Shown here piece by piece: positions 1-6,895 of a DNA stretch of 9,750 nucleotides; the first letter of the stretch is position 1, and every line of letters begins with the position of its first letter. Where the stretch lies: IMG/VR virus record IMGVR_UViG_2526164633_000033, one strand, 5' to 3'. The stretch is from a virus (lineage: Duplodnaviria > Heunggongvirae > Uroviricota > Caudoviricetes). Below the pieces are notes generated by a model. The model ran no database searches. It was given only the letters and a program-made list of their open reading frames with translations, and had not been told where the DNA came from. Made by a program: the position numbers and the translations under genes.

Positions 1-375
1 CTAACAAGATAAACTCGCAGGATTCTCTTTCGTCGCATTGACAAAACAACGGAATAGTCGATTACCTGACTTCCGCCATTTCTGAAGATCCTGCATATTA
101 ATACCATAACTGCTGAACAACATAAAGGTGTCATCCAGATATTCGTCGATCTGCTCAATGAGCTTATTGTCTTCATTATACTTAATTTTGTAATTAAGTG
201 CGAAGGTCGCAATATGCTCAATCAGTTCATTCAACTGGAGGTTGATCGCCGAGGTTGGGTCGTTAACCCAGCCATGATTGCTTTCTTCAAGGTTTGCAAG
301 ACAGTCATGATACAGGGTTTCACAGAGAAACTTAAGCTGTGCGATATCATGTCTTTTGGGTGAGTATTCATCCAT
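1..375 (-). CDS. Hypothetical protein, 124 aa, AT-rich; complete ORF with stop at 1-3 and ATG at 375-373; no family recognised
   Basis: ORF track, frame re-derived by hand. A purine-rich Shine-Dalgarno (GAAGGGGA, reverse complement of 386-393) sits about 6 nt upstream of the ATG. Composition is visibly AT-rich compared with the phage structural genes. Confidence 0.5.
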   Translation of the reverse strand: MDEYSPKRHDIAQLKFLCETLYHDCLANLEESNHGWVNDPTSAINLQLNELIEHIATFALNYKIKYNEDNKLIEQIDEYLDDTFMLFSSYGINMQDLQKWRKSGNRLFRCFVNATKENPASLSC

Positions 376-906: not shown

Positions 907-990
907 CTTTCAATAACCGATTGATTTATAATGCTTTATCTCTCTTTGTTCCACTATGTGTCCACATTCAGTGGAGGGAGAGGGGAGTAA

Positions 991-1011
991 GCCCGCTACA
1001 TTGCGGGTTTT
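991..1011 (+). terminator. Putative rho-independent terminator hairpin (cccgc-tacatt-gcggg) followed by TTTT
   Basis: Seen in sequence: stem 992-996 / 1003-1007 with a T-run at 1008-1011. The stem is short (5 bp) but GC-rich, and no annotated + strand ORF lies upstream. Confidence 0.3.
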
Positions 1012-1050
1012 GTCTTATAGTCTGATCACTGTTTCAAGTCGGTGAGGGCA

Positions 1051-1093
1051 CCAAAAAGAAAACCCGCAGTTTTTACGCTGCGGGTTTGTTGTT
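1051..1093. terminator. Putative bidirectional rho-independent terminator, likely 3' end of the hok-like transcript
   Basis: Seen in sequence: a perfect 9-bp stem aacccgcag(1061-1069) / ctgcgggtt(1078-1086) with an 8-nt loop. It is flanked by ccaaaaagaa(1051-1060), U-rich on the - strand, and tgttgtt(1087-1093), U-rich on the + strand. Confidence 0.45.
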
Positions 1094-1173
1094 CATGTCT
1101 GTGAGATAGGGTGCCTTATCGACCTTACCCTGGCAACCGATTGACGGGGGATTGCTCCCCCGTCGCGGTTTCC

Positions 1174-1314
1174 TTACTGCTTACACTGTAAGAACGCCGC
1201 AAACTCCGCTCCCCAGAAGCTCATCCGTATTTCACACAGCGAACCGTGCAACATCCAGATGATGAGGATTGCCGTCACGCAGAACGTGATGGCCGTAAGC
1301 GATTTTTGCGACAT
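1174..1314 (-). CDS. hok: Hok/Gef-family type I toxin (HokA-like small membrane toxin), 46 aa
   Basis: Hand translation of the - strand gives MSQKSLTAITFCVTAILIIWMLHGSLCEIRMSFWGAEFAAFLQCKQ. It has one hydrophobic N-terminal helix, the SLCE(I/L) motif and the E-x-AAFL-x-CK tail with two conserved Cys, which I recall as typical of Hok/Gef toxins and closest to HokA. An AAGGAG Shine-Dalgarno (reverse complement of 1323-1328) lies 8 nt upstream of the ATG at 1314-1312. This gene is below the size cutoff of the supplied ORF track. Confidence 0.75.
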   Translation of the reverse strand: MSQKSLTAITFCVTAILIIWMLHGSLCEIRMSFWGAEFAAFLQCKQ

Positions 1315-1444
1315 AGCACTTGCTCCTTTTCCGGAGAGGCGCTAACCTTTCACTTGTCAAGGTAATGCGGTTAGGGCCTCGGTTAAACAGAGATGTTTTC
1401 CGGGGCCTTTCCACATCTGGCCTTCGGGTATTCCCTCCGACCAT
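1232..1444 (-). CDS. Possible mok-like overlapping reading frame (70 codons) that would couple translation to hok
   Basis: ORF track shows a 70-aa frame starting upstream of hok and ending inside it in a different frame. This matches the mok/hok arrangement of the plasmid R1 hok/sok locus as I remember it. No clear Shine-Dalgarno was found, so this is inference from architecture only. Confidence 0.3.
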   Translation of the reverse strand: MVGGNTRRPDVERPRKTSLFNRGPNRITLTSERLAPLRKRSKCYVAKIAYGHHVLRDGNPHHLDVARFAV

Positions 1445-1504
1445 CAGCCGAAAGGCACCCGCGCGTAATCTATCGCTTTTTTGTTAATCCGGCAATTCTG
1501 CCTG

Positions 1505-1765
1505 TTAGTTCTGAGGTAAAGGCAAACTCATCTGATTGTTTCCCCTGTGTGAAGCTGGCAGCTCATGCCACGGGATACCTTCTGAAGAGTGAACGCCGGA
1601 GGCGTGTTTTGATGTGAATTTATGGAAGGCTTCCAGTGTTGAGAAGCATACGCCGCATTCCAGGTTGTTACACTGGTAATACTTTTGCCGCACGGTGTTT
1701 GAATCATTTTCCGGACGACTGGTGCGGATTCGGGCAGATGCGCCACAAAGCGGACAACGGAACAT
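1505..1765 (-). CDS. ogr: Ogr/Delta-family zinc-finger late-gene transcription activator, 86 aa
   Basis: The translation begins MFRCPLCGASARIRTSR...YYQCNNLECGVCF, the C-x2-C...C-x4-C zinc-finger signature of P2 Ogr / 186 B / P4 Delta. A strong GGGAGG Shine-Dalgarno (reverse complement of 1771-1776) lies 5 nt upstream of the ATG at 1765-1763. The track ORF starts 20 codons further upstream (1825) but that start has no such site. The C-terminal 35 residues are divergent from the P2 Ogr I remember. Confidence 0.85.
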   Translation of the reverse strand: MFRCPLCGASARIRTSRPENDSNTVRQKYYQCNNLECGVCFSTLEAFHKFTSKHASGVHSSEGIPWHELPASHRGNNQMSLPLPQN

Positions 1766-1796
1766 AGCGACCTCCCTTAAATGTAGTAGTGCTGCT

Positions 1797-1825
1797 ATTC
1801 TATGTTGTACTGGTTCAGACTCCAA
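1797..1825 (-). promoter_or_regulatory. Putative sigma70-type promoter for ogr (-35 TTGGAG, 17-nt spacer, -10 TAGAAT on the - strand)
   Basis: Seen in sequence: reverse complement of 1820-1825 is TTGGAG and of 1797-1802 is TAGAAT, with a 17-nt spacer, about 20 nt upstream of the ogr ribosome-binding site. Found by motif matching by eye only. Confidence 0.25.
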
Positions 1826-1883
1826 CTGACAGTTTGCATAGATACACGGTTAAGTAATTAAATCATTCAAAATCGGGATAAAA

Positions 1884-3320
1884 ATGAGCACACATGAAAT
1901 AGCTAGCACACAAGCACAAGGGCAACTCGTATCAACAGATTTCAATCGATTCGAGCAATTTTTGGAGTCGCTTGGATTACCAAAAGAAAATGTTCTTGCT
2001 TCAACGATGGAGCGTCAGGTTGTCCAAACAAACTTTCCTCAGTTTGTGATGGCGTTACCAGAAGACGTTAAGCGTGACTCTAGATATTTGTCCAAATTTG
2101 CAGCAGCAAGTGCTATTGGTTTGTTTGATGCTGCCTTGAATTATGTCTGGAACGAAGTTGTACTTAACTTACGAAGAAAGACAGTTATTTATGGTTTGGA
2201 ACTTTTTTTTGATGCTGCCGTTGGTGGTAAACATAGAGATCTATTTAGTACTGAAAGTGACTTAAGTGGTATTAAAGATAAAGTTCTTCTTGATAATTGC
2301 GCTAAATTAGAATTGATCTCCGACTCAATTTATAAAAAACTCACCCATATTTTAATTATGCGCAATGATCTTGGTGCCAGTCATCCTAATGATGCGAAAA
2401 TCAATGCTTATGAACTGATGGGGTGGTTGCAAACATGTGTTCAAGAAGTTATCAATGACACACCTTCAGAGGCTGCACTGCAAGTTAAGGCTTTTGTTGA
2501 GAATCTGCGAAATCAAACTGAAGTCATCAGTAGCTCTAGTTTGCAGCATATGAAAAATGGGCTCAAACAGCTACACACAAGAAATTGTGATAATGTCCTT
2601 CAGACAATCTTCGGTATGTATATTGGTGCTGGTGCAAATAACATCCTTAAGAAAAATATATCTGAAATTGCTCCAACAGTTTGGGAATGTGCAGATAATA
2701 ATATTAAATATAAACTAGGTGTTGCGCTTGATGGTTATCGAACCAACTTGCACAATGATAAATTTTTAGCAGGTAACGAGTTTTTCGAATTTTGCTCTGG
2801 TAATAAATTTAAAACCCTTGAGGCTAGGGTTATTCTGCTTGATGAATATCTGGATGATTTAAGTTCTGCTCACAGCGGTTGGGATAATTTCTATAATGAA
2901 GTTCCTCATGCTAGGAAAATATTAAGTTACATTTCCAATGAATCGGATATTCCTAATGAACGTAAAGAAAAATTAATTCGTATAATTCTATCGTGTCGTA
3001 TTGGTAATGGTGTTTCTTATAACACTGGTGTTTCTCCTTTAGGCAAACCCATATACGATTCAATATTGAATATGCTGGGCGATGATAATATCGTTCAAGT
3101 TATCATTGCATTCTATAATCAAGAGATTTACCACTTATTATCTAACAAAAACTGTAGGAAGCATGCTGTGCAAATTCTAACGGATATAAGAACTAATGTT
3201 GTTAGTGATAAGCTCAAGCAAATCTTAGATTATCTGATTGTAAATGGTGATACTTTGGAAAAAACTATGAAAACCACTGAATTTAAAGCTCTAGCATCAA
3301 GTCATATAAAATTTAGTTAA
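1884..3320 (+). CDS. Hypothetical 478-aa protein in an AT-rich cargo island between D and ogr; N-terminal HEPN-like R-x6-H motif; candidate abortive-infection/defence protein
   Basis: Uninterrupted 479-codon ORF with ATG at 1884 and a GGGA ribosome-binding site at 1875-1878. Composition is visibly much more AT-rich than the flanking phage genes. It is transcribed convergently with D and divergently from ogr. Residues 160-167 read RNDLGASH (nt 2361-2384), which fits the HEPN Rx4-6H pattern. No other catalytic motif was recognised. Confidence 0.8.
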   Translation: MSTHEIASTQAQGQLVSTDFNRFEQFLESLGLPKENVLASTMERQVVQTNFPQFVMALPEDVKRDSRYLSKFAAASAIGLFDAALNYVWNEVVLNLRRKTVIYGLELFFDAAVGGKHRDLFSTESDLSGIKDKVLLDNCAKLELISDSIYKKLTHILIMRNDLGASHPNDAKINAYELMGWLQTCVQEVINDTPSEAALQVKAFVENLRNQTEVISSSSLQHMKNGLKQLHTRNCDNVLQTIFGMYIGAGANNILKKNISEIAPTVWECADNNIKYKLGVALDGYRTNLHNDKFLAGNEFFEFCSGNKFKTLEARVILLDEYLDDLSSAHSGWDNFYNEVPHARKILSYISNESDIPNERKEKLIRIILSCRIGNGVSYNTGVSPLGKPIYDSILNMLGDDNIVQVIIAFYNQEIYHLLSNKNCRKHAVQILTDIRTNVVSDKLKQILDYLIVNGDTLEKTMKTTEFKALASSHIKFS

Positions 3321-3330
3321 TAAATTCTAA

Positions 3331-3368
3331 GTCTTCAAAAAAGGTCACAGATTTGCTATCTGTGGCCT
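3331..3368 (-). terminator. Rho-independent terminator for gene D (11-bp stem with one G-U pair, 5-nt loop, U-run on the - strand)
   Basis: Seen in sequence: stem aggtcacagat(3342-3352) / atctgtggcct(3358-3368) with loop ttgct. On the - strand transcript the hairpin is followed by UUUUUUG (reverse complement of caaaaaa at 3336-3342). There is no U-run on the + side. Confidence 0.5.
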
Positions 3369-3503
3369 GAGGCGGACGCCTTAGTGAGGTGCCACGTACC
3401 ATAAATATCAAGTAAATCATTACAAATATTTTTTAGCGTGAGTGTATTCTTAAGTCCGGCGTAACTATTCTGTATTTATCTTTTTCATGGTATCTATGGT
3501 TTA

Positions 3504-4613
3504 TCATTCTGTTTCTGCTATCCATTCCGGGATTTTTGCTTCAAGCTCAAGCTGAGTGGTAAAGCCGCTGTTATCAATGGTGTGCTCGGCTTTTGCAATA
3601 ATCCAGTCCTGATTATCAATCTCGCTTTTAAATCCTGTTACCGTGCCATGCATTTCGGGGTAGAGTTCTGCGCGTCCGCGTGCCAGTGTGATGGAGAATG
3701 ATGCGGCTCCGCGTTGTAGTTGTTGCCACTTTGCCGCCGCTGCGCGTCTTGCTGCCTGCTCGTTCTGATAAGTCTTGCGTAACACAAACACATTGCCTTC
3801 CGCGCCTTCCATATAATCACCTTCACGGCTGCTGCTTTTCTCTTTTTTCGGTTTTGGCGGTTTGCGGCGTTTCACGCTGACTTTTTTCTTTTTCCCGTAA
3901 TTAAGATCAAGCCAGTAAGCGCGTACCCCCGTATACGCCTCGCGGTCAGCAATGCGGAACTGATGGCGATCGCCGCTGCTGCGTGTGATGGCGAACGATG
4001 GCAACGGCTGGCCCTGTGCGTTCACGCCACCGCCGGGCATGATGAATAACAGATTACCGCTTTTTACCGTGGTGATTGCGCCCAGCATTTCCGCCATGCG
4101 CGTAAGGAAGGACATGTCACTTTCTTCGGTCTGGTCGGCGTGGTCGATTTCGATATGCATCAGCATTTCGCTGATTTGCGGTTTCAGACCGTACCGATGA
4201 GCGATGGCGGATACCACACGCTCAACGGTCACATCATGCCAGGACACCTCACGTTTAACGTTAAATTCATCCCGAAAATCTGCGCTTCTGGCTGAAACAG
4301 TCAGCCTGTCCGGCGGTCCTTCGTGTGCGATTTCATCGACAATGTAAGAGCCTTTTTCTGTCAGCGGTTCGCCTTTCCAGCCAATGAGAACCGTCAGGCG
4401 CGCGCCCCGTGGCGGTAGCTGCAACTGACCATCCGCATCATCCAGCGTGATGGTGAGCTGGTCCGCTTCAAATCCCCGGTTGTCGGTCAGTGACAGGCTC
4501 ATCAGGCGCTCTGCCACGCCTGACAGCGTTTTACCCTCCGCGAGAATATCAAAATCCGGCATTTTCACGGGGTCTGTGCTCTGACTGAGCAATTGCATGG
4601 TGGTGTCGGTCAT
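3504..4613 (-). CDS. D: P2-type tail protein D (gpD, late control gene D family), 369 aa from the proposed start
   Basis: The translation contains LSLTDNRGFEADQLTITLDDADG...SARSADFR...VSWHD and a lysine-rich KKKKVSVKRRKPPKPKKEK linker, matching my recollection of P2 gpD. I prefer the ATG at 4613-4611, which has a GGGAGGG Shine-Dalgarno 4-5 nt upstream. The track start at 4634 has no such site, so the start could be 4634 or 4613. Confidence 0.85.
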   Translation of the reverse strand: MTDTTMQLLSQSTDPVKMPDFDILAEGKTLSGVAERLMSLSLTDNRGFEADQLTITLDDADGQLQLPPRGARLTVLIGWKGEPLTEKGSYIVDEIAHEGPPDRLTVSARSADFRDEFNVKREVSWHDVTVERVVSAIAHRYGLKPQISEMLMHIEIDHADQTEESDMSFLTRMAEMLGAITTVKSGNLLFIMPGGGVNAQGQPLPSFAITRSSGDRHQFRIADREAYTGVRAYWLDLNYGKKKKVSVKRRKPPKPKKEKSSSREGDYMEGAEGNVFVLRKTYQNEQAARRAAAAKWQQLQRGAASFSITLARGRAELYPEMHGTVTGFKSEIDNQDWIIAKAEHTIDNSGFTTQLELEAKIPEWIAETE

Positions 4614-4769
4614 CTTTCCCTCCCTGTGCGGCATGGTCGCATGTGCGTGCGGAGGGGGTTACTGCTTTTTGTTGTCGCCGGGTCGGGAGAACGGCGCAGG
4701 GGTGAGATTACGCGCGTGGTGGGTGATGATTGTTGCCGAATCATTTAACGGATACAAGGGGCTGAAGCT

Positions 4770-5954
4770 ATGAGTGAAACTCGTTTTCATGGTGCCCGTG
4801 TTACGGAAAATACCGACCTGGTAACAGCGATTAACGATGTTGATTCCAGCGTTATCGGTATCGTGGCAACGGCGGATGATGCGGACGCGAAGCTGTTCCC
4901 GCTGAACAAGCCCACACTGCTGACCCGCGTCAATGACGTGCTGGGAAAATGCGGAACAACGGGGACGCTTTATCGTGCGCTTAAGGCCATCGCAGACCAG
5001 GTGAGCACAAAGGTGATCGTCGTTCGCGTGGCTGAACACAAAGAAGAAGACGGAAAGACGCAGGATCAACTGGTTATCGGTGGTTCTGAGGATGACGGCA
5101 GCTATACGGGGATGTATGCGCTGCTTGTTGCAGAGCAGGATGAAAGCATCGGATACCGTCCGCGTATTCTGGCCGCGCCGGAGCTGGACACGGAGGCGGT
5201 GACAAAATCCCTGTGCGTGATTGCGGGTAAACTGCGCGCATTTGTGTATGCCTCATGTCACGGCTGTAACACGATGGCTGAAGCGATTACCTACCGCCAG
5301 AAATTCAACGAACGTGAAGTGATGCTCTTATGGCCGGACTTCATCGCCTACAACCCGAAAAGTGGCGAAAACGAAACGTTCCCCGCGCCTGCTTATGCGT
5401 GCGGCCTTCGTGCGTACATTGACCATGAGCAGGGCTGGCACAAATCGCTGTCCAACGTTCCGGTTAAAAATGTGCTGGGGATGTCGAGGCATGTGTTCTG
5501 GTCGTTGCAGGCCGAAGACAGCGATGCCAACAGCCTCAACAACAAAGAAATCACGACCATTATTCGTCGCAACGGGTTCCGCTTCTGGGGCAACCGCACA
5601 CCGGAAACGAACGCCTACATTTTTGAGGTGTATACCCGAACCGCACAGGTGCTGGCTGATTCAATTGCGGAAGCGCAGTTTGAAACCATCGACAGTCCAC
5701 TGACGCCTGCGAACGTGAAGGATGTTATCAGTGCCATCAGGGCAAAACTGGATTCACTGGTGACTGCCGGGAAACTGATTGGCGCGGAGTGCTGGTATGA
5801 CGTGGTGGATAACAGCACCACGGATTTACGTCAGGGGCGTGTGCGTATTCGCTACAAATATACGCCCGTTCCGCCACTGGAAGACATGGAGCTTTACCAG
5901 ACGTTTACTGATGAATACTTTGAACCCGCATTTGCGGTGCTGGGAGGTGCCTGA
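4770..5954 (+). CDS. FI: Contractile tail sheath protein (P2 gpFI family), 394 aa
   Basis: 394-aa ORF of the length expected for a P2-type sheath, with an AAGGGG Shine-Dalgarno 9 nt upstream of the ATG at 4770. Its stop overlaps the next gene's start (TGATG at 5952-5956), as expected for the coupled FI-FII pair. Confidence 0.9.
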   Translation: MSETRFHGARVTENTDLVTAINDVDSSVIGIVATADDADAKLFPLNKPTLLTRVNDVLGKCGTTGTLYRALKAIADQVSTKVIVVRVAEHKEEDGKTQDQLVIGGSEDDGSYTGMYALLVAEQDESIGYRPRILAAPELDTEAVTKSLCVIAGKLRAFVYASCHGCNTMAEAITYRQKFNEREVMLLWPDFIAYNPKSGENETFPAPAYACGLRAYIDHEQGWHKSLSNVPVKNVLGMSRHVFWSLQAEDSDANSLNNKEITTIIRRNGFRFWGNRTPETNAYIFEVYTRTAQVLADSIAEAQFETIDSPLTPANVKDVISAIRAKLDSLVTAGKLIGAECWYDVVDNSTTDLRQGRVRIRYKYTPVPPLEDMELYQTFTDEYFEPAFAVLGGA

Positions 5955-6465
5955 TGGCTGTGCCAAAACATCTTCGCTTTTTTACGCTGTTTGTGGATGG
6001 TGAAAACGAAGTGGGTAAGGTGACGTCCGTCACTTTGCCTAAGCTGACGCGCAAAACCGACAGCTACCGGGGTGGTGGCATGATGGGGGCGGTAAGTATT
6101 GATCTCGGTCTGGACGACTCCGCGCTTGATGCGAGCTTTGTCATGGGGGCGCAGTTCGTGAGCTGTTCCTTAAGTATGGCGGCACGATTGACAGCACGCT
6201 GCTGCGTTTTGCGGGTGAATACTACACCGATGCAGAAAGCGACCTGTATGAAGTCGAAATGCGCGGACGTGTGACGGAAATTGATATGGGGGAAGCCAAA
6301 CAGGGCGAAGCCACATCACACACTTACGCCATTAAAAACACCTACTACAAGCTGAGTGTTAACGATCGTCCGTTGTGGGAGATTGACCTGCTGAACTTCA
6401 TTTACCGGAAGGACGGCAAGGACATTGTGCCTGACCGTATCCGTTCCGCGCTTGGGCTTGGCTGA
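5954..6465 (+). pseudogene. FII: Tail tube protein (P2 gpFII family) interrupted by a frameshift; N-terminal part in frame 2 (5954-6274), C-terminal part in frame 1 (to 6465)
   Basis: Two track ORFs, 5954-6274 and 6259-6465, lie in adjacent frames. The frame-1 reading is open from 6130 and gives ...ELFLKYGGTIDSTLLRFAGEYY..., a natural continuation of the N-terminal MAVPKHLRFFTLFVDG... Adding one G to the G5 run at 6145-6149 produces a single ORF of about 170 aa (...SFVMGGAVRELFLKYGG...). A GGGAGG Shine-Dalgarno precedes the ATG at 5954. Confidence 0.75.
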
Positions 6466-6520
6466 TAAGTAATATGCAGGCGGCGCAGTGCGTCGCCTCT
6501 GACTGAAAAGGAGAAAACTG

Positions 6521-6895
6521 ATGAAAGACATCGATACTGAAACCCGGAATAACACCGTGGCGGATGATGTGACGGCAGGTGAGGATATGGCTGTCGAACA
6601 TGGCGTAAAACTGACCCGACCCATTGAGCGTGGTGGCGAAAAAATCACGTATGTGGAGATCACCGGGGCTATTGAACAGGCTGGATCCCTGCGTGGTCTG
6701 TCGCTGTCTGATGTGCTGAATCTGAAAGCGGATACCATGTTCACGCTGTTGCCTCGCGTGACCTCGCCACGACTGGATGAAGTGATGATTAAAAAAATGT
6801 CGTCACGCGATTTTATTCAGTTGTGCGCTGTGGCTGTAAATTTTATGAGCGAGCCAGACTCTGGCGCGAAGAGCGTGCAGGAGACGGCAGCGTAA
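6521..6895 (+). CDS. E: Tail assembly chaperone E (P2 gpE family), 124 aa
   Basis: ORF with an AAGGAG Shine-Dalgarno 8 nt upstream of the ATG at 6521. Its position, between the tube and tape-measure genes, and an overlapping -1 frame that extends to the tape-measure start, are the hallmarks of the E/E' pair. Confidence 0.7.
   Translation: MKDIDTETRNNTVADDVTAGEDMAVEHGVKLTRPIERGGEKITYVEITGAIEQAGSLRGLSLSDVLNLKADTMFTLLPRVTSPRLDEVMIKKMSSRDFIQLCAVAVNFMSEPDSGAKSVQETAA

Follow-up and report, generated by a model that had tools for sequence, protein, structure and literature searches.

A one-base loss in a G run splits the tail tube gene of a P88-like Escherichia coli prophage close to a contig end

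Results

The stretch of DNA analyzed here (9,750 nt, in the following termed the window) corresponds, with 100% identity, to the terminal 9,750 nt of contig AIHB01000009.1 from the draft genome of E. coli DEC12B (GCA_000250235.2), so that the end of the window is also the end of the contig. It represents the right end of a P88-like prophage (Peduoviridae, genus Xuanwuvirus) together with the adjoining host DNA. The window starts with tomB (positions 1-375, minus strand), followed by the host/prophage junction at about 881-905. The prophage part contains hok (1174-1314, minus strand), ogr (1505-1765, minus strand), an open reading frame of 478 codons (1884-3320, plus strand) and the baseplate hub gene D (3504-4613, minus strand), which is intact (369 aa) and divergent from the sheath operon, as in P88. 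This operon comprises the intact tail sheath gene (4770-5954, plus strand, 394 aa), whose stop codon overlaps the ATG of the tube gene in the sequence TGATG, the tube gene (5954-6465 as a whole, plus strand), the intact gene E for the tail assembly chaperone (6521-6895, plus strand, 124 aa), the E' extension frame of the GpE family (6823-7059, plus strand) and the tape measure gene T (7046-9750, plus strand), which runs off the contig end and is broken at 7311 and 9725.

The assignment to Xuanwuvirus is based on nucleotide identity and gene order in comparison to P88. This phage shows 94.6% nucleotide identity over 98% of the 6,247 nt between 3504 and 9750 of the window, and it has the same order of genes: D on the minus strand, then sheath, tube, E, E', T and U on the plus strand, then an invertase gene on the minus strand. 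Shae_phiSM, like P88 one of the nearest isolated phages, is 96.0% identical and likewise keeps the gene order and the orientations of the window. The prophage is thus related to P2, but it is not P2 itself. Compared to P2, the sheath-to-U operon of Xuanwuvirus is inverted.

Several other features of the window were noted. The hok gene, a member of the hok/gef toxin family, adjoins the end of the prophage and occupies the same position in P88 and most of the related prophages. For the 478-aa protein encoded between ogr and D, neither a Pfam match nor a significant PADLOC match was obtained. It matches PHROG 27609, a family of unknown function, and the exact protein occurs in 422 blocks of the sequence collection. 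Other P88-like prophages carry different genes in the same slot (PIN_4, a ParA-like ATPase, DUF2971, a methyltransferase and ComF), which indicates a variable cargo slot, possibly one for defence genes. The annotated start of gene D (3504-4634, minus strand) is inconsistent in RefSeq (locus entries L001, L013, L015 and L017): in several genomes the gene is given as a 266-aa "VgrG/Pvc8 family" protein with an overlapping partial "hypothetical protein", elsewhere as a 369-aa "late control D" protein. The two entries that were aligned to the window, L001 and L002, are nearly identical to it across D. The frames of E and E' overlap, and the heptamer A AAT TTT at 6838-6844 is a candidate slippery site for a -1 shift, where a slip would yield a 179-aa E+E' fusion with the GpE domain at its end. 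Heptamer and context are exactly conserved in 37 of 59 fetched loci. The arrangement corresponds to the conserved tail-chaperone frameshift of P2, and frameshifting at this heptamer is a candidate mechanism by analogy with P2 E/E'.

The tube gene is split between two reading frames, as had been described in the first-pass annotation. Direct reading of positions 6140-6151 gives GTC ATG GGG GCG, with a run of five G residues (G5) at 6145-6149 on the plus strand, where all intact homologs have six (G6). The 5' part of the gene, which is FII-like, lies in frame 2 (5954-6274, plus strand) and encodes 106 aa (deposited as EHX36455.1). The 3' part lies in frame 1 (6148-6465, plus strand; GGC GCA GTT to TGA), and a sub-ORF of it with 68 codons (6259-6465, plus strand) was deposited as EHX36456.1. 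The open part of frame 1, from 6130 to the stop codon at 6463-6465, specifies the C-terminal portion of the tube protein, reading ...HGGAVRELFLKYGG...SALGLG, and across 6130-6274 both frames are open. The 106-aa product consists of native residues 1-66 followed by 40 out-of-frame residues up to the stop at 6274; translation would thus leave the tube frame after residue 66 and halt 40 codons further on.

Addition of a single G to the G5 run had been proposed to give an open reading frame of tube-protein length, and it does so: the restored protein has 170 aa and is identical to the intact tube protein WP_000290457.1 (P0017) found in close relatives. It matches the Pfam family Phage_tube (PF04985) with 159.5 bits over positions 1-165 of 165, above the gathering cut-off of 22.4, whereas the deposited pieces match only in part, the 106-aa product at positions 1-61 and the 68-aa ORF at positions 101-165. 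Residues 1-167 of the restored protein align with the 168-aa tube protein of the R2 pyocin (PDB 3J9Q, chain S) with an E-value of 3e-25. The gene is located directly 3' of the sheath gene and 5' of E/E' and the tape measure gene. Family match, position and full-length alignment together bear out the earlier identification as an FII-type tube gene. The restored protein resembles the R2 pyocin tube (3J9Q, 5W5E; PA0623 in 6PYT), whereas the reading frame in the window keeps only 66 native residues. Instead of one reading frame of about 170 codons colinear with a solved tube protein, the window has pieces of 106 and 68 aa, and the tube gene as deposited is therefore a pseudogene of the PF04985 family. 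As about 104 of the 170 tube residues are missing from the 106-aa fragment, it would be unable to form the stacked hexameric tube. Should the sequence be real, with the tape measure gene broken twice in addition, the prophage would not be able to make tails. In that case the tube gene would not be the only broken tail gene.

A search of 5,426 complete E. coli genomes found the tube gene in 1,370 of them, and every listed match in these genomes spans 622 nt compared to the 621 nt of the query. FDAARGOS_1059 and DEC12A, which match best, differ from positions 5900-6520 of the window only by an additional G in the run. The sequence ATGGGGGG is present in P88, in Shae_phiSM and in each further intact locus that was examined, and all of these have a single 513-nt ORF, in which the G6 run forms part of the codons ATG GGG GGC (Met-Gly-Gly), in contrast to the two ORF pieces of the window. 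The tube protein of P88 (AIZ95156.1) is identical to the restored protein in 169 of 170 residues, the difference being S80 in the window protein and G in that of P88. The alignment with intact homologs called for by the first-pass annotation thus gave G6 in every intact relative, and no intact homolog ended at the frame-2 stop at 6274; the intact proteins, including those of P88 and Shae_phiSM, have 170 aa.

Comparison with related loci revealed five differences that were seen in the DEC12B assembly only, namely three 1-bp deletions and two missense changes. Besides the G5 run at 6145-6149 in the tube gene, these are, all in T, a deletion at 7311 (AA to A) that leaves a 91-aa fragment ending at 7321, the substitutions D306Y at 7960 and T410A at 8272, and a deletion at 9725 (AAA to AA) only 25 nt from the contig end. 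The states of the window at 7311, 7960, 8272 and 9725 were found in none of 58 other fetched locus entries, some of which duplicate one another, and among 153 billion gene positions the 91-aa T fragment is on record for the DEC12B assembly only. The deletion at 7311 at first seemed to be shared by L041 and L004, but theirs is a neighboring one (CAAAAG to CAAAG). The G5 run of the window is a separate private event, since the other carriers of its tube haplotype, L001 and L002, have G6.

All five private changes are located between 6145 and 9725, i.e., within 3.6 kb of the contig end. In the 10 kb upstream no private difference was found: prophage positions 954-6144 have none, and an ungapped alignment of the 4,939 nt of host flank with the complete genome of DEC12A, the sister strain, shows no mismatch. 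By our own arithmetic, the chance that five of five private changes fall into the last 3.6 kb, 26% of the compared length, is about 0.001. The same prophage with the same 478-aa gene is present in three other assemblies, a Logan assembly (L045/L061), GCA_900000205.1 (L050/L059) and GCA_900015875.1 (L060). All three encode a 170-aa tube protein and a full-length T, called as 937 or 940 aa, and over positions 954-9750 (8.8 kb) L045 and L050 differ from the window by four substitutions and three 1-bp gaps. A consensus mixed from known prophage copies like those of DEC12A does not account for the private bases at 7960 and 8272, because these are absent from all 58 compared entries, including the copy at the flk site of DEC12A. 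A second G6 run, located within T at 8805-8810, is intact in the window. In two NCTC assemblies (L043 and L046), in which neighboring genes are fragmented by many indels, this run is off by plus or minus one base, so that G6 runs in this module attract indel calls elsewhere, too.

The loss of one G from the tube gene is, on the other hand, not confined to DEC12B. The exact 106-aa product was found on 98 contigs (104 blocks of the collection), and the carriers adjoin pheT-ihfA, serS, flk, tomB or a tRNA cluster and differ in their cargo genes. A K22N variant of the product occurs on 953 contigs (1,068 blocks), including the complete genome of Shigella boydii Sb227 and several other complete genomes. 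Of 1,087 complete E. coli genomes with a match to this stretch, three contain the exact G5 70-mer, and in each of them RefSeq marks the gene as "frameshifted". The same change from G6 to G5, the length of 106 aa and the out-of-frame tail are shared by the Sb227 protein ABB66010.1 and by E. coli 2011EL-1370-2, RM12275-C1 and STEC1585, the tube genes of the latter three carrying the RefSeq flag. The Logan assemblies L003, L005, L006 and L009 have G5 with every other tail gene intact. A product corresponding to G7 was found on eight contigs, compared to at least 1,000 for the intact products.

The G5 run occurs on at least five tube haplotypes, four of which have an otherwise identical G6 partner and one a partner that differs at one site. 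The identical pairs are the window with L001/L002, L015/L020 with L022 and L024-L026, L014/L011 with UTI89 and sister O145 strains, and L009/L010 with the O26 strain 11368; the fifth G5 group (L006, L008 and L012) has L027 as G6 partner with the one-site difference. A single origin of all G5 runs can be rejected: that of the window lies on the haplotype of L001/L002, and the other G5 genes are 7-12 substitutions away. Given the different DNA haplotypes and chromosomal sites, these are independent events, and the loss of one G has independently happened, or been called, many times. Recurrent loss is to be expected at this site, since the gene, which is otherwise ordinary and belongs to dispensable prophages, has no other G6 run. 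The comparison shows that the G6 run is a real hot spot for the loss of one base and that genuine G5 pseudogenes exist in other lineages of E. coli and Shigella. In the lineage of S. boydii Sb227 (L062-L067; about 1,000 assemblies) the G5 allele with K22N is fixed. In some copies of this lineage IS1 has also entered the tube gene in its 3' part, and gene D is shortened to 306 codons; the lineage is a clear example of stepwise prophage decay. In contrast to this Shigella allele, which has been inherited across about 1,000 assemblies, the event in the window is private to one assembly.

The host/prophage junction at 881-905 is located within a terminator hairpin (AAAAAAGGCCGCTCTGCGGCCTTTTTT) between tomB and acrB. 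This hairpin resembles the terminator of ihfA, where the same prophage is seated in other strains. The prophage thus seems to have integrated at a secondary attachment site. The tomB/prophage junction was found in no complete E. coli genome. In DEC12A the tomB-acrB site is empty and the flank identical, which suggests a recent lysogenization that would have left little time for three frameshifts. A chimeric contig with a false join of tomB and prophage DNA is unlikely, because the approximately 12 identical nucleotides shared by the similar terminator hairpins (AAAAAGGCCGCT) are too short for an assembler overlap. The pattern at the junction is what would be expected from an integrase crossover at a secondary attachment site, although this is no proof of it.

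Discussion

The split tube gene of this prophage represents an ordinary frameshift at a homopolymer, and nothing about it points to recoding. The first-pass annotation had offered two explanations, an error of sequencing or assembly and a genuine inactivation. This pair of alternatives still stands, and the evidence now leans to the former, since the private changes are crowded towards the contig end and other assemblies carry this prophage in an intact form. Judged from the sequence comparisons, the missing G of the window is probably (at roughly 65%) a consensus error near the contig end. One G would then have been lost during base calling or consensus building, where support for the end of the contig was poor, and the strain itself would be unmutated. 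A local cluster of 1-bp deletions and odd substitutions right before a contig break points to a weak consensus rather than to biology. The genomes of the DEC collection are probably drafts of the 454 era.

Several observations do not fit easily with a consensus error. The deletions at 7311 and 9725 affect very short runs, whereas longer runs are correct (the G6 run at 8805, and A7 and T8 runs without gaps in comparison to L001), which is not the classic length-dependent pattern of homopolymer errors. The host flank of the same contig is free of errors, so that the assembly cannot be poor in general. Furthermore, the change from G6 to G5 certainly occurs in nature, as seen in S. boydii Sb227 and in the 1,068 collection blocks with the same product.

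These observations are at the same time the main arguments for a genuine inactivation in DEC12B, which we regard as possible but rather unlikely. Replication slippage would have removed one G from the G6 run of the tube gene and two further 1-bp deletions would have hit T, leaving a tail-defective, decaying prophage. The site of the first event is a proven natural hot spot, at which G5 occurs on at least five tube haplotypes, is found in three of 1,087 complete E. coli genomes with the RefSeq flag in each case, and has left its exact product on 98 contigs and the Shigella variant on 953. The two deletions in T are atypical of homopolymer miscalls. However, a genuine inactivation requires that three 1-bp deletions arose independently within 3.6 kb and that two missense changes were added to them, while the other 5.2 kb of equally dispensable prophage and the 4.9 kb of host flank are without any private change. 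The indel-to-substitution ratio greatly exceeds the one usual in natural divergence, as known from E. coli mutation spectra, and the cluster abuts the contig end. The empty attachment site of DEC12A, which argues for a recent acquisition, also speaks against a genuine inactivation.

A functional two-frame arrangement, either by a programmed -1 slip on G GGG G or by a phase-variable switch of tail production, is very improbable. Formally, if tRNA-Gly slipped by -1 in the P site, from GGG at 6146-6148 to GGG at 6145-6147, reading on with GGC GCA would restore exactly the wild-type sequence M-G-G-A-V-R-E-L, and the G5, G6 and G7 alleles all occur on the same N-terminal protein haplotype, several of the G5 prophages having all other tail genes intact. 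If the G6 run did act as such a mutational or translational switch, for which we see very little chance, G5 lysogens could be recurring and persisting tail-off variants in which G5 reverts by slippage or the P-site slip leaks full-length wild-type tube protein, and the host would silence virion production while keeping the cargo genes of the prophage. However, the sequence in the zero frame is G GGG GCG and contains no X XXY YYZ heptamer, so that only a slip of a single tRNA in the P site would be possible. The RNA downstream of the run (6150-6240) folds with an ordinary -28.9 kcal/mol (z = -0.94; 34 of 200 shuffled sequences fold at least as well) and thus gives no sign of a stimulatory structure. 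Nor are the two frames conserved in functional relatives: the run is in frame in P88, in Shae_phiSM and in each of the 36 G6 entries among the fetched loci. A tube needs hundreds of subunits, for which leaky slippage would be insufficient, and contingency tracts usually comprise seven or more bases, with ON and OFF states both common among close relatives. The tract here has only six, G5 is rare in complete genomes, and in Shigella it is accompanied by further decay, with IS1 in the tube gene and a shortened D. The presence of G5 and G6 on identical haplotypes fits with a mutational hot spot, and beyond the slippage-prone run itself neither programmed frameshifting nor phase variation has support.

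Apart from flagging a recurrent site of one-base loss in a common gene, the analysis adds nothing new, and the result is of little importance to biology and of more to curation. If the missing G is a consensus error, EHX36455.1, EHX36456.1 and the split tape measure entries of DEC12B are artefacts among the protein records, and it would be wrong to count the prophage as defective. If the deletion is genuine, DEC12B carries one more tail-defective P88-like prophage with an ordinary pseudogene. A tube gene that appears split at this G6 run should be checked against the reads before the prophage is called defective. A further point of annotation concerns PHROG 55, the family of the restored tube protein P0017, which is labeled "head closure" in the category connector. 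In RefSeq records of P88-like phages the label "head closure" sits under the tail region, and it looks like a mis-annotation that has spread.
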